Positions 1 through 22,147 are shown, counted from the first letter of the stretch. The stretch: 64,000 nucleotides of DNA from an uncultured Ignavibacteria bacterium (GCA_963701735.1 CAVPBI010000019.1:948-64947), one strand, 5' to 3'. Numbers and translations are program-made. Notes: generated from the sequence alone by a model not told the origin.

Positions 1-1
1 G

Positions 2-6073: not shown

Positions 6074-6205
6074 AATCAGCGACTCGTCTGCCACCAGCCC
6101 TCATGAATCCCCCGGGACTCGAGGGTCCTTGCATATCTGGGCTGTGCGGGAGTATCTTGCTGCCATACACGGAACTCTGGCGCCCGATGGCAATCCGCCC
6201 TCTGG

Positions 6206-6270
6206 GCCGCCGCCCTGGACCCTGATCTGGTGTCTCCGTTGTAGAGCCCACCCGACGACCTTCTGGCTCG
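6206..6270 (+). repeat. Conserved upstream element, copy 3 (upstream of the Ser/Thr kinase gene).
   Basis: GCCGCCGCCCTGGACCCTGATCTGGTGTCTCCGTTGTAGAGCCCACCCGACGACCTTCTGGCTCG. Confidence 0.5.
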
Positions 6271-6306
6271 TGCATCGCCGTGCCTCCACTGTGGTAAGGA
6301 ACCGCC

Positions 6307-8940
6307 GTGGCTTCCCTGGTGGGTCAGCTGGTTTCTCACTATAGGATTCTCGAGCATCTCGGGGGCGGGGGGATGGGTGTCGTGTATAAGGCCCACGACC
6401 TCCACCTCGACCGGCTCGTTGCCCTCAAGTTCCTCCCTCCGGAATTGACCAGAGACCCCGACGCAAAGGCGCGGTTCATTCATGAGGCCAAGGCCGCGTC
6501 CGCGCTCCAGCACGACAACATCTGCACCATCCACGACGTCGATGAAACCTCTGACGGCCAGCTCTTCATTTGCATGGACCTCTACTGCGGCGAGACTCTC
6601 AAGCGGAAGATCGACAGCGGGCCAGTCCCGGTTGAGGAGGCCATCGGGCTTGCCATCCAGGTAGCCCGAGGGCTCGCGAAGGCGCACGAGGCGGGGATGG
6701 TGCACCGCGATGTCAAGCCGGCGAACATCGTGGTCACGAAGGAAGGGGAGGTGAAGATCGTGGATTTCGGTCTGGCGAAACTTACACGCCAGACGAAACT
6801 CACCAGGGAAGGTTCGACACTGGGGACCGTCGCATACATGTCGCCGGAGCAGGCACGGGGAGAAACAATTGACCACCGAAGCGACATCTGGTCGCTGGGA
6901 GTAGTGCTTCATGAAATGATCACCGGTCACCTGCCGTTCAAGAGCGACTACGAGCAGGCGCTGGTCTATTCCATACTCAACGATGAGGTGCAGCCCATCA
7001 CGGGGATTGATCCGCGGCTCGATGAAGTTATCCGGAAGACACTGGAGAAGGAACCGTCGGCCCGCTACCAGCGGATGGATGAGGTTGAATCCGCTCTGCG
7101 GCAGCTGAAAAGCCTCGATGGTTCAGCCGGGCTGGAAACAGGCCTCGGCGGGAGATGGCGCGGTGTGAAAAGAGGGTGGGTTGTCCTATCGGGGATCATC
7201 CTGCTCGGAGGCATGGCTGGTGTCATGGGGTCTCTCGTTTTCTGGCCCGGTGCAAAGGAGACTCCCTCCCAGGTCAAACGACTGGTCGTGCTGCCGTTTG
7301 AGAACCTGGGTCCGGCCGAGAACGAGTATTTCACGGATGGGGTGACGGAGGAGCTGACGAGCCGGCTTTCCTCTCTGAGGAACCTGAGGGTCATTTCGCG
7401 GACCAGTGCCGTTCAGTACGCGAAAACCGGCAAACCGTTGGAACAGATCACCAGAGAACTGGGCGTCGATTACGTGCTGGAGGGGGCCGTGCGTTGGGCC
7501 CCCTCTCCGGGGGGTGGGAGCCGGGTGCGCATCAATTCCAACCTCACGCGCACGTCCGACAAGACGACGCTCTGGGCGGAGACATACGACCGCGTGATCG
7601 ATGATGTCTTCGCGCTTCAGTCGGAGATATCCCAGAAGGTAGTCGAGCGGCTTGGTGTCACGCTCCTCGCGTCGGAGCGGAAGAATGTCGAGATGCCTCC
7701 GACGCTGAATCTTGGGGCCTACCAGGCATTCCTGCGCGCGCGCTACTACAGGAGCCGGCCTCACTTCACCGCGTCGAACTGGGTGCGTGTTGTGGACGCG
7801 TACCAGCAGGCGGTGGAGCTCGATACGGGATTCGCGCTGGCCTTTGCAGAGCTCGCGTGGGCCCATGCCCGTCTTTACTATCTCTGGCACGATCATTCCC
7901 CGGGCCGCCTGGAATCGGCCACGCGCGCAGCGGAGAAGGCGCTGGCCCTCTCTCCGGAGATGCCCGGTGTCCACCTTGCGCTTGGATACTACTACCTGTA
8001 TGCGGATCGGGATCCGAAGAGAGCGCTCGATCAGTTCGCCATAGCTGAAAAGGGCATGCCTCACAGCGTAGAGATCCTCGAAGCCAAGACCGCGGTTGCA
8101 TCGGTCGATGGGCGATGGGAAGATGCGTTGGAAAGCGTGTGCGAAGCCGTTGAACTCAGTCCGCGAGACGGGTCGCTGATGGTCGATCAGGCTGAGGTGT
8201 ACTGGGTGCTCCGGCGATATGAGGAGGCTGTCAGGACTTGCGATCTGGCCATTGAGCTCGCGCCGGATGATGCCTGGCCATATCTCATGAAAACGTTCTC
8301 GCTCTGGAGCTGGAGAGGCGGAAGTGCTGAGACGCGGGCAATTCTCCAGGCCGTCCCGGTCTCTCACGACTGGGCGGCCTGGGTGTGGTACTGGCAGAGG
8401 ATGTTTGAACGAGACTATGGTGCGGCAATCGAAGGGCTTTCTACAGACTCCAGTGTGTGGATTCGCACCAAGTGCTGGGCGATGCCGAAGTCGCTCCTGT
8501 CTGGCTATGCCTATCTGCTGTCGGGGGATCGGGAGAAATCGCGAACGGCGTACGAATCTGCGCGTGGGATGCTTGAAGCCGAGGTCAGGCAATGGCCGGA
8601 TGACCCGCGGTACCACAGCTCGCTCGGGATAGCGTATGCCGCCCTGGGCCGAAGTGAAGAAGCAGTGCGAGAGGGGAGGAAAGCAGTGGAGCTTCTTCCG
8701 GTCGCAACGGACGCGTTCTACGGGATCCCGTACGTTCAGGACCTCGCCTTCGTCTACACTCTAAACGGAGACACCGAAAAAGCGGTGGACCGGCTCGCGT
8801 ATCTTCTGTCCATCCCGTCGTGGTTTTCGGCCGCATGGCTCCGCATGGATCCGGAGTGGGATCTGCTGCGGGACAAGCCCGCGTTCAAGAGACTCCTGGG
8901 GGGTACAACGCAGTCAGGGACAGGCGGACCCCGGCGTTGA
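6307..8940 (+). CDS. Ser/Thr protein kinase with a transmembrane segment, a TolB-like N-terminal-type domain and C-terminal TPR repeats.
   Basis: GTG start with an AAGGA Shine-Dalgarno. Kinase motifs GGGGMGVVYKA, HRDVKPANIVV, DFGLAK, SPEQ. A transmembrane segment GWVVLSGIILLGGMAGVMG is followed by VVLPFENLGPAENEYFTDGVTEELTSRLS...VISRTS (TolB-N-like), then TPR-like repeats. Confidence 0.9.
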   Translation: MASLVGQLVSHYRILEHLGGGGMGVVYKAHDLHLDRLVALKFLPPELTRDPDAKARFIHEAKAASALQHDNICTIHDVDETSDGQLFICMDLYCGETLKRKIDSGPVPVEEAIGLAIQVARGLAKAHEAGMVHRDVKPANIVVTKEGEVKIVDFGLAKLTRQTKLTREGSTLGTVAYMSPEQARGETIDHRSDIWSLGVVLHEMITGHLPFKSDYEQALVYSILNDEVQPITGIDPRLDEVIRKTLEKEPSARYQRMDEVESALRQLKSLDGSAGLETGLGGRWRGVKRGWVVLSGIILLGGMAGVMGSLVFWPGAKETPSQVKRLVVLPFENLGPAENEYFTDGVTEELTSRLSSLRNLRVISRTSAVQYAKTGKPLEQITRELGVDYVLEGAVRWAPSPGGGSRVRINSNLTRTSDKTTLWAETYDRVIDDVFALQSEISQKVVERLGVTLLASERKNVEMPPTLNLGAYQAFLRARYYRSRPHFTASNWVRVVDAYQQAVELDTGFALAFAELAWAHARLYYLWHDHSPGRLESATRAAEKALALSPEMPGVHLALGYYYLYADRDPKRALDQFAIAEKGMPHSVEILEAKTAVASVDGRWEDALESVCEAVELSPRDGSLMVDQAEVYWVLRRYEEAVRTCDLAIELAPDDAWPYLMKTFSLWSWRGGSAETRAILQAVPVSHDWAAWVWYWQRMFERDYGAAIEGLSTDSSVWIRTKCWAMPKSLLSGYAYLLSGDREKSRTAYESARGMLEAEVRQWPDDPRYHSSLGIAYAALGRSEEAVREGRKAVELLPVATDAFYGIPYVQDLAFVYTLNGDTEKAVDRLAYLLSIPSWFSAAWLRMDPEWDLLRDKPAFKRLLGGTTQSGTGGPRR

Positions 8941-9056
8941 CCTCCCGCCCCTGAGCGCGTATCTTGAAATCCCGATGTGGTTGACGGCGCTCTCGGGTGT
9001 GCCCGGCCCGCGTGCGTTGGGAGCAAGAAGTCGCTGGTAAATTCAGTTTGTTTCAG

Positions 9057-9093
9057 CCGTGTTCAGGGTTGCTGTTGACACCTGTGTTGACAG
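9057..9093 (+). repeat. Left-end cluster of CTGTTGACA-type direct repeats (GTGTTCAGG, CTGTTGACA, GTGTTGACAG). These are candidate integrase arm-type sites.
   Basis: Seen directly. The same 9-mer family recurs at 18148-18173 and 18548-18616. Confidence 0.55.
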
Positions 9094-9104
9094 GGAGGCC
9101 CAGA

Positions 9105-10124
9105 ATGGACACGGTAGGCTTGTGGAAACGCCGCCTGAGTAAGGCGGCGGTTTACTATGTAGGCTACAGCGACGACACTGGCAGGCGACGCTGGAAGTCG
9201 CTTGGCGTGTCAACGAAGGCTGAAGCACAGAAGCAACTGACCCGCTTCAAAGAAATTCTCTCCCAGACTGGCCGCAGGGCTAGCCCATCCCTCAGTCAAT
9301 TCAGCAAAGAGTTTGAACAGTACGCCAAGGGGACCTACGCGCCCCAGTCGTGCTACCTATTCACGTTGACGCTCCGAAGCCTCAGGGAGTGTGTTGGCGA
9401 TATAGCCCTGTCGAAGGTGACGCCCAGAGACGTTGACAAGTGGCTGACGCTCAGACTGTCGCAGGTGAAGCCAGTGTCGGCTAACGTGCAGCTTCGCACC
9501 CTTCGCAGTGCATTTTCAACCGCTCTGCGGTGGAACCTTCTTCCCACAAATCCCGCCAAAGCCGTGACCCTGCCCAGAGTGTCTGGGGAGCCTGCCTCAT
9601 TCCTGACGCGTGCAGAACTTGCTCTGCTGCTTCAACACCTACCTGCATACGTCAGGCCGATTGTCAGGCTTGGTTTCCACACAGGAATGCGTCGTGGTGA
9701 ACTGCTATCCCTCCGATGGTCGCAGGTTGATTTCTGCCGTGGCATCGTCCACGTTCATTCATCGACCACGTTCAAGGTCAAGGCTGGCAGTGATAGGGTG
9801 GTACCATTAAACAGTGAGGCCAGGGCTGTCCTGTTGGCGTTGGACCAGACACAGGAGCTAGTATTCCACCGCGATGGTCGGCCTGTATTGGGCAACCACA
9901 TCACGAAGCTATTCCGTGAGGCGGTCAGGGATGCCAAGCTGGATCACCGGCTCCACTTCCATAGTCTCCGCCATTCATTCTGTTCAAACCTTGCCGCCCA
10001 GGGTGTCAGCCTGTATCAAATCGGTGCCCTAGCCGGTCACAAATAGCCGGTAGTCACGCAAGGGTACTCCCACCTCCAGCCGGAGGATATGGGAAAGGTC
10101 GTGGAACTCCTGGCGGCGAACTAG
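9105..10124 (+). pseudogene. Tyrosine recombinase / phage-type integrase interrupted by an in-frame TAG at 10044-10046, which lies upstream of the catalytic Tyr.
   Basis: AGGGAGG lies 6 nt upstream of the ATG at 9105. HSLRHSF and ALAGHK motifs are present. After the TAG the same frame continues PVVTQGYSHLQPEDMGKVVELLAAN*, which is the conserved C-terminal box carrying the catalytic Tyr. The ORF track's upstream Met at 8997 overlaps the tRNA-derived repeat and is unlikely to be real. Confidence 0.75.
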
Positions 10125-10238
10125 GGGCAATGAAGCCGGCTGTTGCTGCATGTGGTGCAGGGCATGGGTGGGATCAAGCTGGGAATCCGATTGAAGCAGT
10201 CGGTGATGCACTTGAACAAAGTGCTGTTTGGGCTGTGC

Positions 10239-10751
10239 CTACTGGCCGCCATAAGCCATCCTGATATTGATGAACTTCAATTCACCTTCAGTGACGTTGA
10301 AGCCATCTATCGATTGACCCGTGTTCCAATAGACAACCTCAATAAGAAGGGGCGTGAAACTCCAAACCAGCGATGCCTCCTTGTCGTCGCCCCGCTCATC
10401 CGTTCTCTGGAGGGGTTCACCCAGCTTAGATTCGAATTTCCAGATCTTGTCCGTGACACGCAGCCCTGCTATTACGTGGTCAGGGTACGTCATGAATTTC
10501 CTGTTCCCTACTCCTTGAACTGTGATCTCCGAGACGTTCTGGTTCGGGTCGAAAGTGATGGTCAAGCCTGAATTCCTGAACCGGTGGATTTCGTTCGGCG
10601 GACTCTCAACCACATCGCTGGGTCTACCTAGGATTTCATAGACACGGTTCTTCGGGTCGCCCAGGTGAATAGGAAGTTGCCACTCCGGATCCTTCTTGCA
10701 CCCCGGCACAAGGATCCCCAGGACCAGCAGGGTCAGTGCTAAGTGTCTCAT
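10239..10751 (-). CDS. Hypothetical lipoprotein (island cargo).
   Basis: Start ATG at 10751 with AGGGGG 7 nt upstream. The lipobox reads LVLGILVPG|C. I recognise no family. Confidence 0.5.
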   Translation of the reverse strand: MRHLALTLLVLGILVPGCKKDPEWQLPIHLGDPKNRVYEILGRPSDVVESPPNEIHRFRNSGLTITFDPNQNVSEITVQGVGNRKFMTYPDHVIAGLRVTDKIWKFESKLGEPLQRTDERGDDKEASLVWSFTPLLIEVVYWNTGQSIDGFNVTEGELKFINIRMAYGGQ

Positions 10752-11341
10752 GGCACCCCCTAGAAGTTTCCCCGAAGGTACGACACCGGCTCCGCTATTC
10801 CAACCACCACCATCGCTCCCTGGGCCACTCCAGCGGGGCTGTAACCCAGATCTACAGCCATCTCCAGCCTGAGGAGCTGCATGGGGTGGTCGCCCGCATT
10901 GAAGTGCCACTGAACTAGCGATCCGTAGGTGAATCGCGTGTGCGGGCTGGGGCACCCTGTAGAATCAATTCTTTGGAGATCACTAGTTTTCGGCCTCCAA
11001 AAAGGTGCTACTGACGCGGGGTTTGGAAGGCACCCTGACGGGTCGGCGAAGAACAGGGCTAGGCCGGTATAAGACTAGCCATTTCTGACAATGGTCCAGT
11101 GATAACGTTTTGAGTGGCCTGTTTCTGGCAAGAAACACGCTTCTAGTGGCCCCCCGAACGACACCTCTCAATTCCCCGCGAGGGGCACTAGACCCCTTCT
11201 TCCTGGGGTTAACTACTCTTTCATCATTTCGGTTGATTCACGATGAAGTTCCGTCTGGTACACTTCATCGGGTTAATAGGTGCTACCATTGTGATTTCTG
11301 GATGTGATTGAACACCCGATGGCTTCCGCTGCTTCAGGGTT

Positions 11342-11404
11342 GCCGCCTTGGACTTTGTTCCGGACTCTTCGTTGCAAAGCCCACTCGGACGACCTATCGG
11401 GCTG
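11342..11404 (+). repeat. Conserved upstream element, copy 4 (upstream of the 11528 T9SS gene).
   Basis: GCCGCCTTGGACTTTGTTCCGGACTCTTCGTTGCAAAGCCCACTCGGACGACCTATCGGGCTG. Confidence 0.5.
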
Positions 11405-11527
11405 ATTATCGTACGAATTGTCCAATCGTTCATTGACCCTGCACGCGGTTTCCTGGTGTCGCATTTAGCGCCGCCGAGTGTTGCTGCTCCATCGTCCTAC
11501 ATCCTTCCTCAAGGGGAGGCGACATCC

Positions 11528-12769
11528 ATGAACAGAATACTCATTCTAGCTGGAATGTGTCTTGCTCAGGTTCTTCCGATTGCAAGTGGAATCTCTCAAT
11601 GGATTTCCAGAGGTGGCCCGAACGATGTGTTTTGCTTTGCTGTCGATGCAGAGCGTGGGCTATGGCTTGGAAGTCGGTTTGAAGGAGTCTATCGGTCGCT
11701 GGACGGGGGTGACAGTTGGATTCTGAGCGACACGGGACTGACCAATAAACATATCAACACATTGATGGTTACGCCACGCGGTGTGTTTGCGGGTACGAGG
11801 GGCGGCATATTTCTCTCCACAGACGGCGGCAGTTTGTGGGCCCATTCCGACGGTGGCATCGACACGAGCGTTGCCGCCAACGAAGTAATGGCACTTGCTA
11901 GGGTTGGGACTTATTTGTTCGCGGGGATGGGGGGAAATGGAGTCTACAGGTCGTCGGATGAGGGAGTAACTTGGTCTCAAGCCAGTTCAGGATTGGACGA
12001 GAACTATATCTGGTCAATGGCAGCCGTTGGCAACGACATCTTTGCGGGGACCGACAAGTCAATCTATATAAGTCAAAATTCTGCGAGCACATGGACCCAA
12101 GTGAACTTGGGATTGCCTACATCACCCGTATACGCAATTACTTCGTTGGGGTCGATTCTCATAATTGGCACAGACAAAGGAGTGTACACGCTCACCAACG
12201 TGGGAAGCACTTGGCAACACAAGAGTCTCGGGCGCCCAAATGAAGATGTGTGGTCTGTGGTCGTCGATAGCGCACGCGTCTTCACAGCCAATTATGGTTA
12301 TGGGGTCTTTCGGTCGGATGATTCCTGTTCAACATGGCATGATGTCAGTACAGGACTAACCAACCTCGTGGTCTGGCGCATTGTCATGGTTACACATGCT
12401 ACGAGGGAGACCGATTTGCTTGTGGGAACAAACGGGTCGGGCGTTTGGCAGCGGCCTCACTTTGAACTGCTAACTGCAGTTGACGATCACAGCGGGATGG
12501 TGCCACAGGCGTTCCTACTGTCTCAGAACTACCCCAACCCATTCAATCCCAATACGATTATCACGTACGAGTTACCCAAATTGTCTGAGGTCAGGTTAGG
12601 TGTCTACGACATGCTTGGACGTGAGGTATCCGTGTTGGTGAATGACAGGAGAGAGGCGGGAGTTCACGAGGTTCAGTTTGATGGGTCTGGTTTTGCGGGC
12701 GGCGTGTACTTCTACCGACTTCAGACGGGAGATTTCATGGCGACGAAGTGGCTCCTCTTATTAAAGTGA
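11528..12769 (+). CDS. Secreted BNR/Asp-box repeat protein with a T9SS CTD (island cargo, lower GC).
   Basis: AAGGGGAGG lies upstream of the ATG at 11528, and the signal peptide is MNRILILAGMCLAQVLPIASG. STDGGSLW-type repeats are present. The C terminus LSQNYPNPFNPNTIITYELP...GVYFYRLQTGDFMATKWLLLLK is a T9SS CTD. Confidence 0.8.
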   Translation: MNRILILAGMCLAQVLPIASGISQWISRGGPNDVFCFAVDAERGLWLGSRFEGVYRSLDGGDSWILSDTGLTNKHINTLMVTPRGVFAGTRGGIFLSTDGGSLWAHSDGGIDTSVAANEVMALARVGTYLFAGMGGNGVYRSSDEGVTWSQASSGLDENYIWSMAAVGNDIFAGTDKSIYISQNSASTWTQVNLGLPTSPVYAITSLGSILIIGTDKGVYTLTNVGSTWQHKSLGRPNEDVWSVVVDSARVFTANYGYGVFRSDDSCSTWHDVSTGLTNLVVWRIVMVTHATRETDLLVGTNGSGVWQRPHFELLTAVDDHSGMVPQAFLLSQNYPNPFNPNTIITYELPKLSEVRLGVYDMLGREVSVLVNDRREAGVHEVQFDGSGFAGGVYFYRLQTGDFMATKWLLLLK

Positions 12770-12968
12770 AGGCGGGCTCAGATATCCCACGCAAGCAATT
12801 CTTTCAGAGGCGAATGCCGAAGTCGGGAAAGATTCCCGAGTTGTGTTTTTCGTAACCGCCGCCGTTTGGGGGAATCAAAGGCGGATGGTCTACAATGCGG
12901 AGACCAAATCGCGTGTTGGTCGACAAGAAGCGGGATGTACAAACATTCGAAATAGAGAGGCAAGAACC

Positions 12969-14510
12969 GTGAAAAGCACTCTTCTCATGGTGACCCTTTG
13001 CAGCCTTCTGCCTGCGACGATACATGCGCAATGGTTCAAGATGACTGACGGTGACGTGTTTGCATTCGCCAAGAGCGCCTCGGATCTCTTTGCGGGAACT
13101 ACCGGTGGAGTCTTGCTTTCAACCGATGAGGGGACAACTTGGACTGCGGTCAACACGGGGTTACCGACGGACCCTCGCGTCCGTGCCCTCGCCGTCTCCG
13201 GCGGGAATCTCTTCGCTGGGTGTTATGTCGATGGCGTCTTTCTCTCCACCGACAACGGTGCAAGCTGGAGTAATACCGGCTTCCAAGGCACTAATGTTAC
13301 AGCTTTTGCCGTCTTGGGTACTAATCTCTTTGTTGGGACTGGCGGCTTCGGCGTCTATCTCTCAGCGGACAACGGCACAAGCTGGACTACAGCGAGTGCC
13401 GGCTTGACGCCTGATGTCCGCTGTCTTGCCGTCAGCGGCTCGAATCTTTTTGCAGGGACCTATGGCGGCGACGCCATCTATCTCTCAACGAACAACGGGA
13501 CAAGTTGGACTGCGGTCAATACCGGCTTGACGACCTTTGTTGTCCATGCTCTTGCGGTCTCGGACACGAATCTCATTGCAGGGGCTCGGGACGGCACCTT
13601 TCTTTCAACCGACAACGGAGCGAACTGGACACTAGCCTCCCCGAAAACGGAAGTTCGGGCCTTGGCGGTCAGTGACACCAGTCTTTTTGCCGGATTTAGC
13701 GGCTCAGGCGTTGATGGTTCGACCAACGGCGGCACAAGTTGGTTCGAAGGTTATTGGAATGGGGGTCGTGCCGCTTGTAGGGCACTCTGTATTACGACCT
13801 CGTATCTCTTTTTTGGAGACGAGAACGGGGCTTGGCGGAGAAGCCTAACTGAGTTGCTGCCGGAATTCTATCCCCCCCGTATTGGAAGCGTGCGTGATGT
13901 CCCGAATGACCAAGGCGGTAAGGTCAGCATGCTCTGGTCCCGGTCAAGCCTGGATATAACGGCTATTCAGACTATCACAGAGTATAGAGTATGGCGCGGG
14001 GTGAGGAACGCACTCTTGTCAATTGTCTGGGAGTATGTTGGCTCGAGCCCCGCGCAAGGCTTTCCTGAGTACTCCTATACGGTGCCGACGCCCTCTGACT
14101 CCGGCCCCCAAGGCAACTCCATGTACTACTTCCGCGTGAGTGCTCAAACTACAACACCTGAGACATCCTTTTTCTCTAAGCCCGACAGCGGCTACAGCGT
14201 GAACAACCTCCTGATTGGTGTGGATGATGATAATCAGTCAGTAGTCTCCTCGTATTCACTCAGCCAGAACTACCCAAATCCATTCAATCCGAGCACGACA
14301 ATCAGATACGCGCTGCCGGAGAGGTCTCACGTCACTCTCACAGTCTTCAACGCGCTCGGGCAGCAGGTAGCCACCCTGGTTCAGGCAGAGCAGGAGGCTG
14401 GGTATCACGAGGTGCAGTATGAAGCTTCAAGCCTTGCAAGCGGAGTATACCCCTACAGGTTGCAGGCGGGAGATTTCGCACAGACGCGACGACTTGTATT
14501 GCTGCGCTAG
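12969..14510 (+). CDS. Secreted BNR/Asp-box repeat protein with a central Ig/CARDB-like region and a T9SS CTD.
   Basis: GTG at 12969 (VKSTLLMVTLCSLLPATIHA|QW) with GAGAGG upstream. An alternative start is the ATG at 12987. LFAGTxGGVxLSTDxGTxWT repeats are present. The C terminus LSQNYPNPFNPSTTIRYALPERSHVTLTVFNALGQ...GVYPYRLQAGDFAQTRRLVLLR is a T9SS CTD. Confidence 0.8.
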   Translation: MKSTLLMVTLCSLLPATIHAQWFKMTDGDVFAFAKSASDLFAGTTGGVLLSTDEGTTWTAVNTGLPTDPRVRALAVSGGNLFAGCYVDGVFLSTDNGASWSNTGFQGTNVTAFAVLGTNLFVGTGGFGVYLSADNGTSWTTASAGLTPDVRCLAVSGSNLFAGTYGGDAIYLSTNNGTSWTAVNTGLTTFVVHALAVSDTNLIAGARDGTFLSTDNGANWTLASPKTEVRALAVSDTSLFAGFSGSGVDGSTNGGTSWFEGYWNGGRAACRALCITTSYLFFGDENGAWRRSLTELLPEFYPPRIGSVRDVPNDQGGKVSMLWSRSSLDITAIQTITEYRVWRGVRNALLSIVWEYVGSSPAQGFPEYSYTVPTPSDSGPQGNSMYYFRVSAQTTTPETSFFSKPDSGYSVNNLLIGVDDDNQSVVSSYSLSQNYPNPFNPSTTIRYALPERSHVTLTVFNALGQQVATLVQAEQEAGYHEVQYEASSLASGVYPYRLQAGDFAQTRRLVLLR

Positions 14511-14626
14511 CATCTGTTGCTCAACGTCTTCTGCATTTCAGCAGGCCGCGGACCGGTGCTCAGAGTGGCCCTTCTTTCGTGTCTTTCCGGCCCGTTACTT
14601 CATGCCCCAATGCCCCGGAGGCACCA

Positions 14627-16078
14627 ATGAAGCCAAGTCCATTCCCACTCCTGACCATGTTCAGCCTCTTCGTCGTGTTCGCGAGCCAGACGGATGCGCA
14701 GACGCTAGTCCTGGACACAACGTATAGCACGTCATCCTACGAGGAGGCATATGCACTCGTTCTGCCTCCCTCTGGTGGGTACGTGGTGGCAGGCACTTCC
14801 AGCCCTGGCGGCAACAGTCCTGGAACCGCAGCAATCACACTATTTGACAGTCTACTCCGATTCGAGCGCAGGGTTTCCTACTATGGGGCGTACTCCGCCA
14901 CTGGATATTCGATGAAACACACCTTTGACAACGGATATGTGATTACAGGGGTAACTCGTAGCTCTGATGGTGTTGGGGGCAGTGACATATATGTCTTGAA
15001 GGTAGATGCACAAGGTGATCCGAATTGGGACACCTGGTACGGCACCAACTATGCTGACGTAGGACGCGATGTCGCTCAGGCTCAGGATCTTGGGTATGTG
15101 GTTGTAGGGGACAAGGGTGACCAATCCGGAGGGCAGGATTTGTGGCTGGTGAAGTTCGACCTATATGGAAACTTTGACTGGGAGAAATCCTACGGGGACG
15201 CTGATCTTGGTAGGGCGATCTGTGAAACGGGCGATGGGGGGTTTGTCGTGGCAGGTGAAGTCACGTCCTCTCCGAACACAGATGCATTTGTAATGGGTGT
15301 CTCGGCTGATGGGAGTAGACTCTGGTCGAAGCGCTTGGCCCCTCGTACCATAACGAATGCCGCCGCGGTAAAGAGGATACCTTCGGGAGGATATATCGTT
15401 GCCGGGTCCGCCACAGCCTGGCCAAACTTGGATTACGATATCTATCTGATGAGATTCAACGAGACAGGAGATACGCTCTGGACAAAGATCGTGGAACTAC
15501 CCGGGGACCAGATCCCTGCATCCGTCGAGATCGGCGTCGGGGGTGGGTTTGTGGTAGCTGGGAGGAACATCCGGGATTCAAACTCTGACCTCACAGACAT
15601 CCTGATCGCCCGGTTCGATGATGCTGGTAATATGCGATGGAGTAGACTGATCGGTGGGGCAAAGGCTGACTACGGCTATTCCGTCGGAGTGGCTAAGGAC
15701 ACTTCGTACGTTGTGGCGGGAACTTCCTTCAGTTCGAGCAGCGGAACGGCCGATATCATGCTTTGTGGAGTGAAGGACATCCTCTCCGATGTTGGACCTG
15801 GAGTCTCGGCCCCAAACGGTTTCGCTCTTGGCCAGAACTATCCAAACCCTTTCAACCCGAGCACGACCATCAAGTACGAGTTGCCGAAAGCGTCGGTCGT
15901 GAGGCTGAGTGTCTACGACTTACTCGGTCGTGAGGTATCCGTGTTGGTGGATGAGAGGAGGGATGCTGGAGTGCACCAGGTTCAATTCGATGCCTCTGGA
16001 CTGGCAAGTGGAGTGTACCTGTACCGACTGCAGGCTGGCGACTTCGTCCAGACCCGCAGACTGGTTCTAATACATTAA
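14627..16078 (+). CDS. Secreted SBBP-type beta-propeller repeat protein with a T9SS CTD.
   Basis: Signal peptide MKPSPFPLLTMFSLFVVFASQTDA|Q. There are about seven repeats of the form Y(G/S)xxxxDxGxxIxxTxDGG(Y/F)VVAG, which are SBBP-like. The C terminus LGQNYPNPFNPSTTIKYELP...GVYLYRLQAGDFVQTRRLVLIH is a T9SS CTD. Confidence 0.75.
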   Translation: MKPSPFPLLTMFSLFVVFASQTDAQTLVLDTTYSTSSYEEAYALVLPPSGGYVVAGTSSPGGNSPGTAAITLFDSLLRFERRVSYYGAYSATGYSMKHTFDNGYVITGVTRSSDGVGGSDIYVLKVDAQGDPNWDTWYGTNYADVGRDVAQAQDLGYVVVGDKGDQSGGQDLWLVKFDLYGNFDWEKSYGDADLGRAICETGDGGFVVAGEVTSSPNTDAFVMGVSADGSRLWSKRLAPRTITNAAAVKRIPSGGYIVAGSATAWPNLDYDIYLMRFNETGDTLWTKIVELPGDQIPASVEIGVGGGFVVAGRNIRDSNSDLTDILIARFDDAGNMRWSRLIGGAKADYGYSVGVAKDTSYVVAGTSFSSSSGTADIMLCGVKDILSDVGPGVSAPNGFALGQNYPNPFNPSTTIKYELPKASVVRLSVYDLLGREVSVLVDERRDAGVHQVQFDASGLASGVYLYRLQAGDFVQTRRLVLIH

Positions 16079-16100
16079 CCACGGCCCAGACTCTTCAAAT

Positions 16101-16135
16101 GGGGGGCCTGTTTTTGGCCCCCCCGCTTCTTTCCG
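16101..16135 (+). terminator. Rho-independent terminator downstream of the 14627..16078 gene.
   Basis: GGGGGGCC-tgttttt-GGCCCCCC stem-loop followed by a CTTCTTTCC T-rich tract. Confidence 0.6.
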
Positions 16136-16367
16136 TCCAAAAATCCAGCCAAAACCACAGCTCTGCGAAGCCTGTTTGCGCTATCTCCTCCAAGGGGTAT
16201 CCAGAGTACCCCCCGGGAGAGTTCGCCCCGAAACCTCGTGTTGAGTGGGGGTTTTTCAGCGACGAATGGCTCTCCCCGGACCTCTCCGGGGCCCTTGCTA
16301 TTGGTCCCCTCGTGCAGTACGTTCGGCCACATGTTGTTTGGTGCTCTGTGGCTTCTCCAGCCATCGA

Positions 16368-16432
16368 GCCGCCGCTTTGGACCCTGGAATAGTTCTTCCG
16401 TTGTAGAGCCCACCCTGACGACCCCCTGGCTG
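16368..16432 (+). repeat. Conserved upstream element, copy 5 (upstream of the 16619 T9SS beta-lactamase-like gene).
   Basis: GCCGCCGCTTTGGACCCTGGAATAGTTCTTCCGTTGTAGAGCCCACCCTGACGACCCCCTGGCTG. A 25-nt core is identical to copy 3 apart from one inserted T. Confidence 0.5.
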
Positions 16433-16618
16433 TAAGCCTCGACGTACACTGATTTCACGGTGACTGAGAGACTCAGTGGCTCGACGTAGAAGTCAGCGAG
16501 CCGTCGAGTGTTTCTGGTCTGCCCGACGACGCGCCGAGTTCTGCGTCAAGGTGTCATTCACTGGTTGTCGTAGCGGCCTGTTCAGGTTGAGAGTTACCTA
16601 CACAACAACGGAGGAGTT

Positions 16619-18145
16619 ATGCCCCGATTGTATTTGCTTCTTTTCGCTGTGGCGCTGGCTGTTAATGCGAACGGCCAGAGTTCAGTGTCGCTGCAACCAC
16701 ACCGGGGTCCATTGAGAGAAAACATTCCCGCAGCCGCCACGCGAGCGACTGCGTCCGTTTCCCAAACCAGTGCCCCTAGTACCTCCACTTCGCTCGACAG
16801 TTTTTTTACCGCGTATATGGCCACATACCACATTCCGGGGGTAGCGGCATGCATTATCAAGAAGAATAGGGTGGCATGGCAAGGATACTATGGATTGGCG
16901 GACATGTCCCTGAACATCAACGTTACCGACAGTACCATCTTCATGCTTGGCTCAATCTCAAAAACAGTCACCACCACTGCGCTGATGCAACTGTATGAGG
17001 CCGGCCGTTTCCAGCTTGACGATAGCGTAGACAGATATGTCCGGTTTGAAGTCCGCAACCCAAACCACCCGAGTGTTCCGATTACATTCAGAATGTTGCT
17101 CACTCACACTTCTTCGATAGGGGACAACTGGGCCGTTTTGTCCAATCTCTATGTCATGGGCGACCACCCGTTGTCGCTCGGTACGTTTCTTAGGAGGTAT
17201 TTGTTGCCAGGAGAAAGGTACTACAGTTTAGGTAACTTCTATAGGTATGCCCCGGGGACCACCTGGAATTACTGTAATGTCGGGGCTGCTCTTTGCGGTT
17301 ACCTTGTTGAAAGGATATCAGGGATTCCATTTGACCAGTATTGCAGAGACAGCGTCTTTGTGCCTTTACGAATGGCACGGACGGCCTGGTTCCTCCGAGA
17401 TCTGGACACCGCCTTGGTTGCACGCCCCTACACGTATTCGTCTGGAACGTATATTGACCAGGGCCTGTATGGTTACCCTGACTATCCGGATGGCCAACTA
17501 CGAACGACAGCTGCTTCCCTCGCCAGGTTTCTCATGGCCAACATGAACGGCGGCGAACTGGATGGCCAGAAGGTGCTCGACAGTTCAACCGTTCGCCTGA
17601 TGCGCACACGGTGGTTCTTCGGTGGAGCCGGGGGTAGACAAGAAGACCAAGGCTTGATATGGTACACAGCGACGATTAACGGTAAGAGACTCTGGGGACA
17701 CACGGGCGGAGATGCCGGTGTTACAACCGCGGCATTCCTGTCGGAACAGGATAGCACTGGCGTTCTGTTTCTGTCAAACCTCTCCCCCGACGATTTCGCC
17801 TGGCGAGACATTGTCGATCGATTGATGACCGAAGCCGACACACTTACTGTGGACGTGCGTCAACCCGTCGCCTATGGGCCGGAGGAAGTTCTGCTGCACC
17901 AGAACTATCCCAACCCATTTAACCCCAGCACTACTATTCGATACGCGCTACCGATACGCTCACACGTCGTGCTCACCATCTTCAATATGCTAGGAGAGAG
18001 GGTAGCGGAGCTTGTGAATGGAGAGGTAGAGGCTGGCTATCATGAGGTCCAGTTCGATGGAGCGACTCTCGCAAGTGGTGTGTACTTCTACCGACTGCAA
18101 GCGGGAGATTTTGTGCACTCGAAGAAATTGATGATTGTGCGTTAA
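16619..18145 (+). CDS. Serine beta-lactamase / PBP4-family hydrolase with a T9SS CTD.
   Basis: AGGAG lies upstream of the ATG. Signal peptide MPRLYLLLFAVALAVNANG|QS. SxxK (SISK), YxN (YCN) and HTGGDAG motifs are present. The C terminus LHQNYPNPFNPSTTIRYALP...GVYFYRLQAGDFVHSKKLMIVR is a T9SS CTD. Confidence 0.8.
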   Translation: MPRLYLLLFAVALAVNANGQSSVSLQPHRGPLRENIPAAATRATASVSQTSAPSTSTSLDSFFTAYMATYHIPGVAACIIKKNRVAWQGYYGLADMSLNINVTDSTIFMLGSISKTVTTTALMQLYEAGRFQLDDSVDRYVRFEVRNPNHPSVPITFRMLLTHTSSIGDNWAVLSNLYVMGDHPLSLGTFLRRYLLPGERYYSLGNFYRYAPGTTWNYCNVGAALCGYLVERISGIPFDQYCRDSVFVPLRMARTAWFLRDLDTALVARPYTYSSGTYIDQGLYGYPDYPDGQLRTTAASLARFLMANMNGGELDGQKVLDSSTVRLMRTRWFFGGAGGRQEDQGLIWYTATINGKRLWGHTGGDAGVTTAAFLSEQDSTGVLFLSNLSPDDFAWRDIVDRLMTEADTLTVDVRQPVAYGPEEVLLHQNYPNPFNPSTTIRYALPIRSHVVLTIFNMLGERVAELVNGEVEAGYHEVQFDGATLASGVYFYRLQAGDFVHSKKLMIVR

Positions 18146-18173
18146 TCACTTGACATCACACGTTTGACAACAG

Positions 18174-18205
18174 GCCCAGGCAGCGATGTCTGGGCTTTCT
18201 TTTTC
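18174..18205 (+). terminator. Rho-independent terminator downstream of the 16619..18145 gene.
   Basis: GCCCAG-gcagcgatgt-CTGGGC followed by TTTCTTTTTC. Confidence 0.6.
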
Positions 18206-18547
18206 ATCCCCCTCGCCCTCCTAGTACTTCCCGAATGATTTTCAAAAATATTGTGTGCGGACCAAATAGATTGAAGCCTACCCCCCTTGAATAGCGGGTT
18301 TTGGGTCGAGTTCAGGTTGAGTTTGATTTCAATCTGGATAAAGGGACTCTGAGACCATGACGCCCTGACGTAGGCCATGCCTTTCACAAGAACTCCCCGC
18401 TCAACAACGAGTTTTACGGCTAGCTCCAGCGGGTGACCAGTGAGGTGGGGTGGAGGGGGTCGGAGGGGAAAGCGGTGTTGAAGGTGTTTGATTAGCTGTG
18501 TGACCTCTTGAAGGCGGGAAGGTGGGGCGACCCTTGACTGCCGGCCA

Positions 18548-18616
18548 GGGTGTTCGTACCTTTGCTCCGGCGTGTTGACAAACGTGTTGACAGAAGTTGT
18601 CGACACTTGTCAACAG
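18548..18616 (+). repeat. Right-end cluster of GTGTTGACA / CTGTTGACA repeats (direct and inverted) immediately upstream of tRNA-Pro. These are candidate arm-type sites.
   Basis: Sequence: GTGTTCG...CGTGTTGACAaacGTGTTGACAGaaGTTGTCGACActTGTCAACAG. It mirrors the left-end cluster at 9057-9093, and a further pair lies at 18148-18173. Confidence 0.55.
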
Positions 18617-18674
18617 TCGCCAAAACTAACGCCTGAACATGACAGAAAATCGCTGAAACAAGCCTAAATTCCCT

Positions 18675-18749
18675 CGGGGTGTAGCTCAGCCCGGTTAGAG
18701 CGCTTGCTTTGGGAGCAAGAAGTCGCTGGTTCGAATCCAGTCACCCCGA
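18675..18749 (+). tRNA. tRNA-Pro, anticodon TGG.
   Basis: Cloverleaf read by hand. Acceptor CGGGGTG/CACCCCG, D-stem GCTC/GAGC, anticodon stem CTTGC/GCAAG with loop TTTGGGA, T-arm GCTGG-TTCGAAT-CCAGT, discriminator A. Confidence 0.85.
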
Positions 18750-18775
18750 CTCACACTCGACTTTTGTTGCCCTCC

Positions 18776-19477
18776 TCAGAAGGCCGTGTAGAGGTAATAC
18801 ACGCCGCCAAGTATCACCATCACGCCGGCGACCCGTTTCATCCACAGCGCCCCCTTCGAGCGTTCGGTCCAGTGAAGGTACCGCTGCACGGTTCCGACGG
18901 AACCCCCGGCTCCGGCAATCACGGCACAGTGCCCGATCCCAAACGCCGCAATGAGTCCCAGTGCCTCAAGGGGATTCGTTGATGCCACGCTGAACACCAC
19001 TCCAAGCACCGGTGCCATATATGCAAACGTGCACGGTCCCAGACCGATGCCGAAGATCAACCCGAGCAGGAGCGCACCCTTCCACCCCCGGGCGACCGAC
19101 GTCTGAGGTACGGCACCTCGCCACGATACATGGATGACATCCAGGAAGTAGAGCCCGACGATGAAGAACACCCCAGCCACGATGAGATTGCCCCAGACGC
19201 CGACATCGCCCATCATTCTGCCTGCGGAAGCCGTGATCACTCCAATCAGTCCGATGGTGATCAGAATCCCCACGGCGAAGATCAACGAGAGGAGGTACGG
19301 CCGCGCCGTGCCGGTCTGTTCCTGACTGCTGATGTAGCCGACAACAAGGGGGATGCTGGAGAGATGACAGGGACTGAGAACGATGCTCAAGACACCCCAA
19401 CCTGCTGCAGCAAGTAGAGCGATGCCGAAGCTGTCGCTCATGGCCATCGTCAGCCATGTGAAGAGTTCATCGAGCAT
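18776..19477 (-). CDS. ccdA: Cytochrome c-type biogenesis protein CcdA / DsbD-family transmembrane thiol-disulfide transporter.
   Basis: Six TM segments. LSPCHL and GLGPCTF carry the paired Cys motifs. Confidence 0.8.
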   Translation of the reverse strand: MLDELFTWLTMAMSDSFGIALLAAAGWGVLSIVLSPCHLSSIPLVVGYISSQEQTGTARPYLLSLIFAVGILITIGLIGVITASAGRMMGDVGVWGNLIVAGVFFIVGLYFLDVIHVSWRGAVPQTSVARGWKGALLLGLIFGIGLGPCTFAYMAPVLGVVFSVASTNPLEALGLIAAFGIGHCAVIAGAGGSVGTVQRYLHWTERSKGALWMKRVAGVMVILGGVYYLYTAF

Positions 19478-19480
19478 GAG

Positions 19481-19891
19481 TCATCCCGCAGTGCGGATCT
19501 TCAGGCCGTGCTTCTGCAGAAGGCTGTCGATTGCCGGTTCGGGATAGAATCCCTCGTGTCGAAAGAATTCCTTCCCGTCCTTGTCGAGAAATACCTGCGT
19601 GGGGATGACCCGTATGCCATACGTCTCGGCGTATTCATGCTGCTCGGGCTTCCAGACGTCGTAGAATACGACGGCGATCTGGTTACCATACTTCTTCTCG
19701 ATGGCCGCCATGACAGGTTGCATCTGCCTGCACGGGACGCATTTGACTGATCCGAGTTCGACGAATGTCACAAGCGGCTTCCCGGTTTCGCCGGTCTTTG
19801 CCGGCGACGTCTCATGCACTTCTTGAGACAGAACCACGCCTGCGCTCATGATGAACGCCATAAGAATGAGGAGTGTCCTTTGAGCTGCCAT
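19481..19891 (-). CDS. Secreted thioredoxin-fold protein (TlpA/ResA-like) with a CVPC active site.
   Basis: Start at 19891 with GAAGGA upstream. Signal peptide MAAQRTLLILMAFIMSAGVVLS. VELGSVKCVPCRQM is the CxxC motif. Confidence 0.75.
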   Translation of the reverse strand: MAAQRTLLILMAFIMSAGVVLSQEVHETSPAKTGETGKPLVTFVELGSVKCVPCRQMQPVMAAIEKKYGNQIAVVFYDVWKPEQHEYAETYGIRVIPTQVFLDKDGKEFFRHEGFYPEPAIDSLLQKHGLKIRTAG

Positions 19892-19957
19892 GGAATCCTT
19901 CCCCCTGTGAGTGTGATGCGTGCCTGGCCGCACAGGGCCAGCAGCATTGCTACAGGT

Positions 19958-21076
19958 TCACGAAAACTCGCCGAACAGCCATCCCGCGATCACGGAAAGC
20001 ATGATGATGGTCAGGATGTATACGGGGGCCTGTCTTCTCCCCATGATCTTGAAAAGGACGATCATGCTCGGAAGGCTCAGAGCGTTCCCCGTCAGGAACA
20101 GCGTGAGTGCCGGCCCCCGCCCCATGCCCAGCCCCATCAGCTTCTGGATGATCGGCACTTCCGTCAGCGTTGCGAAGTACATGAACGCACCGAAGGTCGA
20201 GGCAACAAGGTTGGCGAGGAGCGTGTTCTCCCCGACGAGCCCGACCACGAAGTCCCTTGGAATGGCAACTTCGATAATGCCGGCGATGAACACGCCCACA
20301 AAGAGGTAGGGGAGGATCTTCTTGGTCAGCTCCCACGTCTCGCGCAGCCATTCCAGGTTGTGTTCTCTCCGGAATTTGAAGAACACGATGCCCAGCACAG
20401 CCCCCACCATCACAATGATGAGCACCGCCTTGAGGGTTTGGTCAAGCGACAGCCCGAACACCACCAGGATGGCAAGTTGAAGCAGGAAGAACGTGAGGAT
20501 GGTGGAATTCGAATAGGGCACATCCCCACTCATCCCAGCGGCGAACGGTTCCTGGGAGTTCTTCTTGTCATGACCGCGGAAGAGCGCAGCCATCAGGAGC
20601 CCGGCGAGCACCGAGATGACGAGTGCGGCAACAAGCCTCCCCACGGCAAAATCCCAGCCGAGCACGCTACCGGTCAGCAGTATTGCGGTAACGTTGATGG
20701 CGGGGCCTGTGAAGAGAAATGCGACGGCGGGGCCGATACCCGCTCCGCGTCTGTAGATGCCGGTGAAGAGGGGAAGGATTGTGCAGGAGCAGACGGCAAG
20801 GATTCCTCCTGAAACACTGGCGATCGGATAGGCAATCCACTTCTTGGTCGTGGGGCCCAGAAGCCGCACGATGGCATCCTTCTTCACGTACACCGCAATC
20901 GTGCCGGCGATGAAGAAGGCCGGGACGAGACACGTGAGCACATGAAGCCGCGAGTACTCATGGAGAAGCGAAAGCCCGGCGGAGATCGATCGCAGCACGA
21001 TGGGCGCATCGATGGGAGCGAAGTAGAAGATGACAAACACTGCTGCAAGCAGTGTGAATTTCCCCCACTCCTTCAT
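19958..21076 (-). CDS. Predicted permease (DUF318 / YraQ-like two-domain permease) of the ArsR-thioredoxin cluster.
   Basis: About 10 TM segments. It is arranged as in ArsR, redox-active disulfide protein and permease loci. It overlaps the upstream gene by 4 nt (ATGA). Confidence 0.65.
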   Translation of the reverse strand: MKEWGKFTLLAAVFVIFYFAPIDAPIVLRSISAGLSLLHEYSRLHVLTCLVPAFFIAGTIAVYVKKDAIVRLLGPTTKKWIAYPIASVSGGILAVCSCTILPLFTGIYRRGAGIGPAVAFLFTGPAINVTAILLTGSVLGWDFAVGRLVAALVISVLAGLLMAALFRGHDKKNSQEPFAAGMSGDVPYSNSTILTFFLLQLAILVVFGLSLDQTLKAVLIIVMVGAVLGIVFFKFRREHNLEWLRETWELTKKILPYLFVGVFIAGIIEVAIPRDFVVGLVGENTLLANLVASTFGAFMYFATLTEVPIIQKLMGLGMGRGPALTLFLTGNALSLPSMIVLFKIMGRRQAPVYILTIIMLSVIAGWLFGEFS

Positions 21077-21324
21077 TGGGCTGCCCGGACGTTTGCGGTT
21101 ATCAGCTCTTTGATCCTGTCGATGGATGGCACGCCTCCCTGCCAGACGAGCTTCTCATCGATGACCAGTCCAGGTGTTCGCATCACGCCGTACGACGCAA
21201 TGCCCTCAAGGTCGATGACCTTCGACACGGTGGCCTGAAGATTCATCTCGGCAACGGCATCAAGCGTCCGCCGCTCCAGTGTGCGGCAGTTCATGCAGCC
21301 TGGCCCGAGTACTTTGATTGTCAT
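21073..21324 (-). CDS. Small thioredoxin-family protein (redox-active disulfide protein 2-like).
   Basis: MTIKVLGPGCMNCRTLE carries a CxxC in a thioredoxin fold. AGGAGGAG lies upstream of the ATG at 21324. Confidence 0.7.
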   Translation of the reverse strand: MTIKVLGPGCMNCRTLERRTLDAVAEMNLQATVSKVIDLEGIASYGVMRTPGLVIDEKLVWQGGVPSIDRIKELITANVRAAQ

Positions 21325-21338
21325 GGTTTCTCCTCCTG

Positions 21339-21656
21339 TCATGCTTCCTGTAATGCTTCGGCTCTCTTTTCGACGTCCCGGCGTGCAAGCGATGTGACAA
21401 TGTCCAGCAGCCTGAACGTTCGGGCGTCCACGACCTTGAAGTTGACCCGCAATCCGTCTTTCCAGGAGAACAGGATGCCCGCCTGCACGAGAATCTTCAG
21501 GTGGCGCGAGAGATTGGACTGCTCCATGCCGAGCTCAGGCGCGATCTCGCAGTTGCACCGTGGCCCCTGGCGGAGGAAATCCAGAATACGGATCCGGTTC
21601 GGGTGTGCCAGTGCCTCGAAGATATCGCTCTTGAGCTCGGCGGCGGTCGTTGTCAT
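21339..21656 (-). CDS. ArsR/SmtB-family metalloregulatory transcriptional repressor.
   Basis: HTH region AHPNRIRILDFLRQGPRCNCEIAPELGMEQSNLSRHLKIL. Start at 21656 with GAGGG upstream. Confidence 0.8.
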   Translation of the reverse strand: MTTTAAELKSDIFEALAHPNRIRILDFLRQGPRCNCEIAPELGMEQSNLSRHLKILVQAGILFSWKDGLRVNFKVVDARTFRLLDIVTSLARRDVEKRAEALQEA

Positions 21657-21688
21657 CAGGAAGCCCTCTGAATGTTGAACTATATGAG

Positions 21689-21702
21689 TATATGTGCATA
21701 TA
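21689..21702 (+). promoter_or_regulatory. Inverted repeat TATATG-TG-CATATA in an AT-rich patch, about 35 bp upstream of arsR. Candidate ArsR operator and -10 region.
   Basis: A 6-bp-arm perfect inverted repeat. It is the only AT-rich patch in this GC-rich interval. Confidence 0.45.
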
Positions 21703-22099
21703 GCGTGCCCGCGAGGAGGGTGCGCCTGCAGCCGGCAAATGCCGATTCTCCGGCTCGTTCTTTCTCGGAATCCGTAAGCCATTGTCGTTTTCAAGAGAGG
21801 GCGAACGCCGTGGAACATCTGTGGAGGGGATGTCTTGCCGCGCATCAAAAGGGGCAATCACAGGTGTGATGTCACGGCGTCGAAGCAACCGTACCGGTGG
21901 GGCCCTGTCCCTACGCGTCTGTTGAAAGCCTCGTCTACATCAGCGAAGGTCAGGGAGTGTCGTGGCAGTGCACCGACCCATCAGGGCCACGGAACCGCCG
22001 AGCACATTGCTCCTGAAGTTCCCTCCAGGCACCTACATGTACCGGCTCACCTTCGGCTCGCGCACTGAAAGCCTGAGGATGCTCCTCCTGAAATGGAAA

Positions 22100-22120: not shown

Positions 22121-22147
22121 TCCTCCGCGCAACCCGCGGTGTGTCAG

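Follow-up and report, generated by a model that had tools for sequence, protein, structure and literature searches.

At positions 9039-18672 of the window studied here, a stretch of 64,000 nucleotides from an uncultured Ignavibacteria bacterium (GCA_963701735.1 CAVPBI010000019.1:948-64947), lies what we consider, with good confidence, to be an integrative genomic island that entered a tRNA-Pro(UGG) gene by tyrosine-recombinase site-specific recombination, in the rare 5'-replacing, or "reversed", configuration. On its 5' side the intact tRNA gene borders element DNA, and the upstream flank of the host runs into a stranded 5' fragment of the gene. The island is ~9.6 kb long and, besides a broken integrase gene, holds genes for a lipoprotein-like product and for four proteins that bear the C-terminal domain (CTD) of type IX secretion system (T9SS) substrates. 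A first-pass annotation of the same sequence had proposed an integrated, tRNA-Pro-linked island at 9017-18749; the island itself stands, whilst its boundaries do not, and have been redrawn from alignment to a genome in which the site is empty.

The empty site and the hybrid tRNA-Pro gene

The empty site was found in L004, an uncultured Ignavibacteria metagenome-assembled genome (MAG) that emerged from a scan of species-representative genomes with the Ser/Thr kinase flanking the island. There, the kinase gene is followed ~70 bp on by tRNA-Pro(TGG), with tRNA-Arg and tRNA-Glu beyond it at the spacing seen in the window. By blastn, window 8019-9038 matches L004 10006-11037 at 84% identity, the left flank being syntenic right up to the repeat, and window 18673-28610 matches L004 10980-20912 at 95.5%; all that lies between, window 9039-18672, is wholly missing from L004. 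The same 58 bp of L004 (10980-11037; tRNA positions -2 to 56) match both ends of the island, and the element proper must therefore be 9039-18672. A search for such a site had been proposed along with the first annotation, and its outcome is positive: the left flank of L004 runs to window 9038, and its right flank resumes from window 18673.

The functional tRNA-Pro(TGG) occupies 18675-18750 on the + strand; it is the sole tRNA-Pro called by ARAGORN, scores 69.7 bits against Rfam, and is the only match in an Rfam search of the island. Aligned to L004, it proves to be a hybrid gene, in which 18673-18730 (positions -2 to 56) is common to element and host, and 18731-18750 is host DNA. As first annotated, this intact gene is accompanied, on the same strand, by an exact 22-bp copy of its positions 35-56: the 22-mer TTGGGAGCAAGAAGTCGCTGGT is present in exactly two copies, at 9017-9038 (+ strand) and 18709-18730, against a chance expectation of 0, and the direct repeat stretches to 30 nt at 93% when mismatches are allowed.

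The geometry that had been described as odd is real, with a 5' tRNA fragment on the left and the intact gene on the right. The accompanying statement that the sequence to the left of 9017 is not tRNA-like has to be given up, since tRNA positions 1-34 can be aligned to 8994-9016 once three deletions (~11 nt altogether) and 3-4 substitutions are allowed for, positions 35-56 being intact. Aligned globally with both L004 and the functional tRNA, the whole of 8994-9038 (+ strand) corresponds to the displaced host 5' part of tRNA-Pro (positions 1-56), and forms the host side of the left attachment junction (attL); Rfam no longer scores it as a tRNA. The suspicion that the 22 bp might belong to a degenerate second tRNA-Pro was therefore half right: a degenerate 5' fragment is there, a second full gene is not, and what remains is a displaced piece of the target, as an attachment junction should hold.

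On the right, the sequence just 5' of the functional tRNA (18640-18674) has no kinship with what lies natively upstream in L004. It is thus the element's own DNA that precedes the functional tRNA, and it follows that the 5' part of that gene comes from the element. This was one of two origins initially offered for the geometry, and it is upheld by the alien upstream DNA, by the junctions in two further contigs, L054 and L056, and by relatives with intact integrases; the other, a later rearrangement, is unneeded. By its geometry, the hybrid would require the promoter of the working gene to lie in the right arm of the element. A sigma-70-like candidate promoter (TTGACC-17-TATCTT, from a consensus scan only) lies in host DNA at 8937-8965 (+ strand), upstream of the original position of tRNA-Pro, and now faces the displaced fragment and the integrase gene; TATCTT is also found upstream of the tRNA in the empty-site L004.

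Further copies of the left junction come from L054, whose integrase is 89% identical to that of the window at the protein level, and from L056, the single useful (short) contig from a metagenome scan with the integrase, which has 92% nucleotide identity to the window over the left arm and the start of the integrase gene. In both, tRNA positions 1-56 are perfect and give way, at the nucleotide where they do so in the window, to the same non-tRNA arm and then the integrase. These junctions are intact and identical in layout, which argues that the stranded piece is a 5' fragment by design, and not a second full tRNA. The tRNA fragment of L056 is preceded by right-arm-like sequence, homologous to the right arms of the tRNA-Lys element L058 (81% over 74 nt) and of another contig, L142, with which it has a small open reading frame (ORF) in common; patches of window 18447-18481 are also present in it. 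The resulting order of right arm, tRNA 1-56, left arm and integrase could be either a circular attachment site (attP) or a tandem junction. A G-rich non-coding patch of the right arm, at 18381-18481, is kept in L056 (35 nt, 89%) and in L142 (78 nt, 81%).

Composition, integrase and arms of the island

The island stands out from its surroundings in composition, and the lower GC noted at the outset is borne out: GC is 0.544 within 9039-18672, against 0.610 in the left flank and 0.611 in the right, and the tetranucleotide correlation to the host is 0.43-0.62 inside the island against 0.945 +/- 0.02 elsewhere in the window. A windowed scan, run as had been suggested, restricts both anomalies to the island interval. 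Within the island, GC is itself uneven, at 0.55-0.57 over 9-11 kb and 0.51-0.53 over 11-13 kb.

A tyrosine recombinase had been annotated at the left end from 9105, and this is the case: int1 (9105-10124, + strand), which starts 66 bp from the left repeat, matches PF00589 (E = 1.5e-24) and phrog_1 (E = 6.7e-61), and its suggested domain layout has an Arm-DNA-binding-like segment at the N-terminus, with SAM-like core-binding and catalytic domains after it. The gene is a pseudogene. An in-frame TAG at 10044-10046 sits seven codons ahead of the catalytic Tyr (AGHK*PVVTQGYSHL) and thereby removes it; the frame reads ...AGHK*PVVTQGYSHLQPEDM..., at a place where homologues have LGHSSxxVTxxYSHLQPE. 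The nonsense inactivation, which had likewise been read from the sequence at first pass, recurs in an independent Logan assembly (L001, 99.9% identical) with the same stop and the same 313-aa product, and the corresponding codon in L054 is TCG (Ser). The integrases of both sequenced Pro-type copies, in the window and in L054, are disrupted, by different mutations: in L054, a 1-nt deletion at ~870-880 splits the integrase into two gene calls, either by independent inactivation or by assembly error.

Beyond int1, at 10811-10918 (+ strand), tblastn detects the last 35 codons and stop of a second integrase (LGHSSGAVTQIYSHLQPEELHGVVARIEVPLN*), of which 10811-10915 is 66% identical to residues 307-341 of P0003, a member of the same integrase family. 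This relic has the same orientation as int1 and lies between int1 and the lipoprotein gene on the one side and the remaining cargo on the other; its presence points to the island being the remnant of a tandem or mosaic array with an internal deletion.

The space between the left repeat and int1 is taken up by the left, or P', arm (9039-9104, + strand), which is conserved in L054 and L056. It holds two direct 8/9-mers 12 bp apart (9072-9080 and 9084-9092), just 5' of the ribosome-binding site of the integrase, and the 8-mer pair is kept in both contigs. The right, or P, arm (18566-18674, + strand) is unrelated to the native region upstream of the tRNA in L004 and shows inverted similarity to the left arm; it carries GTGTTGACA twice in direct orientation (18572-18580 and 18584-18592) and twice inverted (18598-18606 and 18608-18616). 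The word TGTTGACA occurs 7 times in the window against 1.0 expected, with five of these copies at the ends of the island (9073, 9085, 18573 and 18585 on the + strand; 18608 on the - strand). Clusters of the 9-mer had been annotated just inside both ends: those at 9057-9093 and 18548-18616 hold up, TGTTGACA being enriched, whereas a third, at 18148-18173, consists of 2-mismatch variants only. This last cluster abuts or overlaps the terminator hairpin of cargo gene 4 and, since it also accompanies the gene amid different surroundings (L142), it is not convincing as a cluster of arm sites, and was rejected.

A paired-site layout upstream of the integrase, each with its own word, is present in all relatives examined (TGTTGAC in L060, TGTAAAC / TGTAGAC in L058, TGCTAACA in L061, TGGTTGCC in L144, TTGTTACA in L146 and TAAGCAC in L150), and the word recurs in the far arm of L058, L144 and L150. 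Integrases of the heterobivalent, lambda type have an N-terminal arm-binding domain and arm-type sites. As in that system, the window has short repeated words in both arms, distant from the crossover region; unlike it, the match of int1 to an arm-binding domain is sub-threshold, and no excisionase gene was found. We infer that the 8-mer pairs in the two arms are candidate arm-type sites for the N-terminal domain of the integrase.

The reversed layout among related elements

The family numbers roughly 600 integrases. Besides L054, the closest are at most 43% identical to that of the window, and genomic context was retrieved for six of them. Some are classical. In L058 (tRNA-Lys), the intact tRNA lies 82 bp 5' of the integrase gene, and the repeat, positions 16-74 plus ~45 nt, lies 3 kb downstream. 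L060 (tRNA-Asp) and L061 (tRNA-Thr) are apparently classical on the sole ground that the intact tRNA abuts the integrase; the far ends of these two elements were not found within 10 kb.

Others are reversed. In L144/L145 (tRNA-Val(CAC), integrase P0079), a 61-bp perfect repeat (tRNA -1 to 60) lies directly 5' of an intact integrase gene, and the intact tRNA-Val is 6.8 kb downstream. In the element of integrase P0241 (L148-L157), tRNA-Arg(CCG) 1-56 lies ~145 bp 5' of the integrase gene and the intact tRNA ~6.2 kb downstream, the latter being seen in 8/10 contigs from different samples; its repeat consists of ~20 nt upstream plus tRNA 1-56, and so ends at position 56, as in the window. A tRNA-Arg(ACG)-like 5' fragment occupies the same place upstream of the integrase in L146. 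The P0079 and P0241 integrases are 36-38% identical to that of the window. The Val and Arg elements share with the window the order of host gene, 5' fragment, left arm with two direct 8-mers, integrase, cargo, right arm with the same 8-mers and intact tRNA, and their tRNA 5' fragments end 1-5 nt into the T-loop. Unlike in the window island, their integrases are intact and their repeats perfect, at 56-61 bp or more; they are 6-8 kb long, use other tRNAs and other arm words, and carry DnaB-like or AAA_25 helicase and RepO-like genes in place of T9SS cargo. The reversed layout thus recurs with intact integrases and perfect repeats, and is a recurrent feature of the family rather than an accident of the window locus.

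Several of these loci deserve a word of their own. The tRNA-Val element (L144 9854-17882, also L145) is ~7.9 kb long, looks intact, and encodes a WD40 protein, a DnaB-like helicase and a RepO-like gene product, and the P0241 element (for example, L150 5049-11475) is ~6.4 kb long, with an AAA_25 protein, and occurs in many samples in one host context. L146 8099-10000 combines an intact tRNA-Asp, a RelB/YafQ toxin-antitoxin pair and the tRNA-Arg(ACG)-like 5' fragment 5' of the integrase, and may be an array of elements. In L058, a 41-nt duplicate (flank plus tRNA-Lys 1-16) is found at 9700-9740, upstream of the intact target tRNA; in L060, a 39-nt tRNA-Asp 5' fragment at 3570-3608, ending at the anticodon loop, lies 6.2 kb upstream. 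These extra 5' fragments are likely to be scars of earlier integrations of the reversed type.

Cargo and flanking genes

The cargo described at first pass, a lipoprotein and four proteins with a T9SS CTD (two BNR propellers, an SBBP propeller and a beta-lactamase-fold hydrolase), was recovered in full, the SBBP match being weak. The lipoprotein-like ORF (MRHLALTLLVLGILVPGC...; 10239-10751, - strand) has no family match. The four T9SS genes, all on the + strand, are intact: each opens with a signal-peptide-like sequence and ends in a canonical C-terminal domain. Gene 1 (11528-12769, with the ORF open from 11348) encodes a BNR/sortilin-like beta-propeller with a signal peptide and a T9SS type A C-terminal domain, and gene 2 (12843-14510, likely start near 12987) a BNR-repeat beta-propeller with a T9SS C-terminal domain; gene 3 (14579-16078) encodes a secreted protein with the weak SBBP-repeat propeller match and a T9SS C-terminal domain, and gene 4 (16619-18145) a beta-lactamase-fold serine hydrolase (PF00144) with a signal peptide and a T9SS C-terminal domain. 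A hairpin followed by a T run, resembling an intrinsic terminator, comes after gene 4 (18172-18205, + strand), and also accompanies the gene in L142.

Genes 1 and 2 have paralogues, 30-45% identical, in the left flank of the host (1-6070), and so add to a family that the host already had. Gene 4, with its upstream region and terminator (16349-18205), is found at 94% nucleotide identity in L142 (9727-11587), near a right-arm-like contig end and with other genes upstream; the gene 4 block also occurs at 89% nucleotide identity in L143 (2213-3842), beside tRNA-Met. By these comparisons, gene 4 behaves as an exchangeable, gene-sized module, which lends indirect support to a horizontal movement of T9SS substrates on these elements; such movement is plausible.

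That the cargo is not made of phage genes, as had been claimed, is confirmed by Pfam and PHROGs searches of the island ORFs, which returned only the integrase and a fold-level beta-lactamase match, and no capsid, terminase, tail or lysis genes. Nor are there relaxase, coupling-protein or type IV secretion genes, or replication genes, among the island ORFs. No plasmid record matched the island, phage integrases are at most 28% identical to int1, and a scan of IMG/VR gave only integrases of at most 34% identity, without informative tRNA context.

On the right, the flank at 18751-23500, with DsbD-like and ArsP permease genes, is slightly low in GC (0.57-0.59); as it is 95.5% conserved in L004, it lies outside the island. 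Exact look-ups with the flanking kinase and ArsP proteins returned no record. The tRNA-Arg and tRNA-Glu genes of the window are at 23475-23677. On the left, window 4007-6120 (a BNR-propeller gene with a T9SS CTD) and 6220-8018 (~570 N-terminal codons of the Ser/Thr kinase-TPR gene) have no counterpart in L004. This second indel, adjoining the island, is probably a deletion in L004, since the kinase of L002 is full-length.

Weighing the explanations

One alternative refines the interpretation of an integrated, 5'-replacing island and is compatible with it: two related elements could have integrated one behind the other at tRNA-Pro and then undergone an internal deletion, the island being what is left of them, so that the cargo came with the element of the relic integrase and not with that of int1. 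We regard this as close to an even prospect, falling a little short of one. The relic, in the same orientation as int1 and placed between int1 with the lipoprotein gene and the cargo, speaks for it, as do the step in GC between 9-11 and 11-13 kb and the L056 junction, in which right arm, tRNA 1-56, left arm and integrase follow one another as expected inside a tandem array; moreover, arrays arising by re-use of a single site are known for tyrosine-recombinase elements, as described in PMC6563490. Yet the stretch between 10134 and 10810 yielded no trace of a tandem junction, be it an internal att site, a tRNA fragment or what is left of an arm, the same 8-mer word in both outer arms suits a single element, and replacement of an integrase module could equally leave a relic.

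The remaining alternatives contradict a 5'-replacing integration. Had the element brought a complete tRNA-Pro, two full genes would have resulted, and the integrase-proximal one could have decayed as redundant; the left arm after position 56 is indeed faintly like the T-loop region of a tRNA (GATTTCAGTC against TCGAATCCAGTC), and the attachment sites of relatives hold most of a tRNA (positions 16-74 in L058). This is nonetheless improbable, as the window, L054 and L056 all leave the tRNA at the same nucleotide for the same non-tRNA arm, with positions 1-56 perfect in two of the three, and the repeats of the Arg and Val relatives, whose integrases are intact, likewise stop in the T-loop. An ancestral origin of the DNA, lying between the copies of a partial local tRNA-Pro duplication and lost from L004 by deletion between the repeats, would need no mobile element at all. 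Two genomes cannot polarise the direction of change, and the paralogues of genes 1 and 2 in the left flank would suit DNA native to the host; we nevertheless hold this to be highly improbable in view of the integrase gene abutting the repeat, arm sites typical of the family, the strong compositional anomaly, the junction of tRNA-Pro with this integrase and arm amid other flanking DNA (L056), and the occurrence of cargo gene 4 elsewhere at 94% identity. We give almost no credence to a classical, 3'-replacing island whose fragment and intact gene swapped ends through a later inversion or translocation, even though such is the usual geometry of tRNA islands, is the one seen in L058 and apparently in L060 and L061, and might explain the inverted similarity between the two arms: the flanks are collinear with the empty site and end exactly at the repeat, the stranded piece is a 5' and not a 3' fragment, and the same junction is found in L054 and L056, as is the same design, with perfect repeats, in the Val and Arg elements.

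Several observations nevertheless weigh against site-specific integration of a 5'-replacing element as we propose it. L004 is a different genome, with flanks 84-95% identical, and insertion into one of the two lineages would look like precise loss from the other; and neither an excised circle nor a strain-level empty site was seen for the window copy, although with a dead integrase none is expected. The L054 and L056 contigs are only ~1.1 kb each. A consensus scan and inspection revealed no convincing promoter for the functional tRNA in 18566-18674. The match to the Arm-DNA-binding domain (PF14657, E = 0.0012) falls under the Pfam threshold, the position of the crossover is placed by inference only, and the relic makes two integrases candidates for having brought the cargo. 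Finally, a perfect 22 bp beside 34 heavily decayed nucleotides is not what simple neutral decay predicts. At the ~84% flank identity to L004, ~3.5 of the 22 bp should have changed; candidate reasons for their preservation are gene conversion, residual selection and chance.

Discussion

Elements that recombine with the 5'-distal part of a tRNA gene are considerably rarer than those of the 3' type, according to PMC6563490, which cites for the 5' type a bacterial case (Zhao & Williams 2002, J Bacteriol 184:859) and the archaeal CalSub-E1 in tRNA-Ser. The 5'-replacing elements cited there recombine with the 5'-distal part of a tRNA, as does the window island, and, to judge from the geometry, would have in common with it an element-derived 5' part and a stranded 5' fragment. 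Compared with the examples given there, the window island differs in its host, an Ignavibacteria-class bacterium, in a shared block that runs from tRNA -2 to 56, and in belonging to a family that includes classical members. A second point of comparison is the 10K island of Riemerella anatipestifer, a ~10-kb island in tRNA-Arg with direct repeats at the tRNA gene, for which the integrase and a 53-bp attP are enough for integration, and which excises spontaneously (PMC6764341). It resembles the window island in size, in having a tyrosine integrase at one end, and in being without phage structural genes; the ~3-kb tRNA-Lys element of L058 resembles the window island in integrase family and paired arm sites. 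In both of these, the integrase abuts the intact tRNA and the 3' part is replaced, whereas the window island is the mirror image, and inactive. As 5'-type recombination and small, integrase-only tRNA islands of Bacteroidota such as Riemerella 10K are already known, we read the window island as a new member, now decayed, of a rare class with precedents, that of 5'-replacing tRNA integrators.

How would such an element work? The junctions show that its attachment site begins ~2 nt before the tRNA and includes the gene as far as position 56, without the 3' end. After integration, the working tRNA lies at the integrase-distal end, made up of element DNA (and hence, presumably, an element promoter), the shared -2 to 56 and the host 3' end, and the host's own 5' fragment is left stranded beside the integrase gene, into which the stranded host tRNA promoter may then read. 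Strand exchange would fall somewhere in the 58 bp common to element and host, the anticodon stem-loop being the likeliest place. Known shared blocks span positions 16-74 (L058), 1-56 (the window and the Arg element), -1 to 60 (the Val element) and 1-39 (the L060 relic); every one of them contains the anticodon loop, and in both geometries the homology on the non-rebuilding side extends ~16-20 nt beyond that loop. Such a pattern would suit a crossover placed centrally, in the anticodon stem-loop, and an attachment site that reaches from there to one end of the gene, be it the 3' or the 5' end.

The window copy itself appears to be a fossil, no longer mobile, to judge from its dead int1, its decayed stranded fragment and the relic of a second integrase. 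With the stranded 5' fragment decayed, excision would leave a broken tRNA-Pro gene.

The most interesting by-product is the presence of both geometries within one integrase family. With an architecture that is otherwise identical (paired arm sites, and ~16-20 nt of homology on the non-rebuilding side), this family is a natural system for how an attachment site changes the half that it rebuilds. One could go further, and suppose that this family, of uncultured Ignavibacteria/Bacteroidota-type bacteria, switches repeatedly between 3'- and 5'-replacing attachment sites around a central crossover in the anticodon stem-loop. We think this unlikely, if worth stating; the neighbour-joining tree of the integrases is rough, and too coarse to count switches of geometry. 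If true, the stranded host tRNA promoter would drive the integrase only when the element is integrated, and decay of the 5' fragment would make excision destroy a needed tRNA gene, so that the island and its T9SS cargo would be locked in the chromosome and the integrase lost.

There is also a practical consequence, as standard island finders seek an intact tRNA beside the integrase and a 3' fragment at the distal end, and mirror-image elements of the kind described here may be missed or mis-bounded. For the biology of the Ignavibacteria, the implication is that integrase-bounded DNA of foreign composition can harbour genes for T9SS-secreted proteins; and, as the beta-lactamase-fold gene recurs almost unchanged in other contexts, the secreted repertoire of the host would be partly exchangeable.

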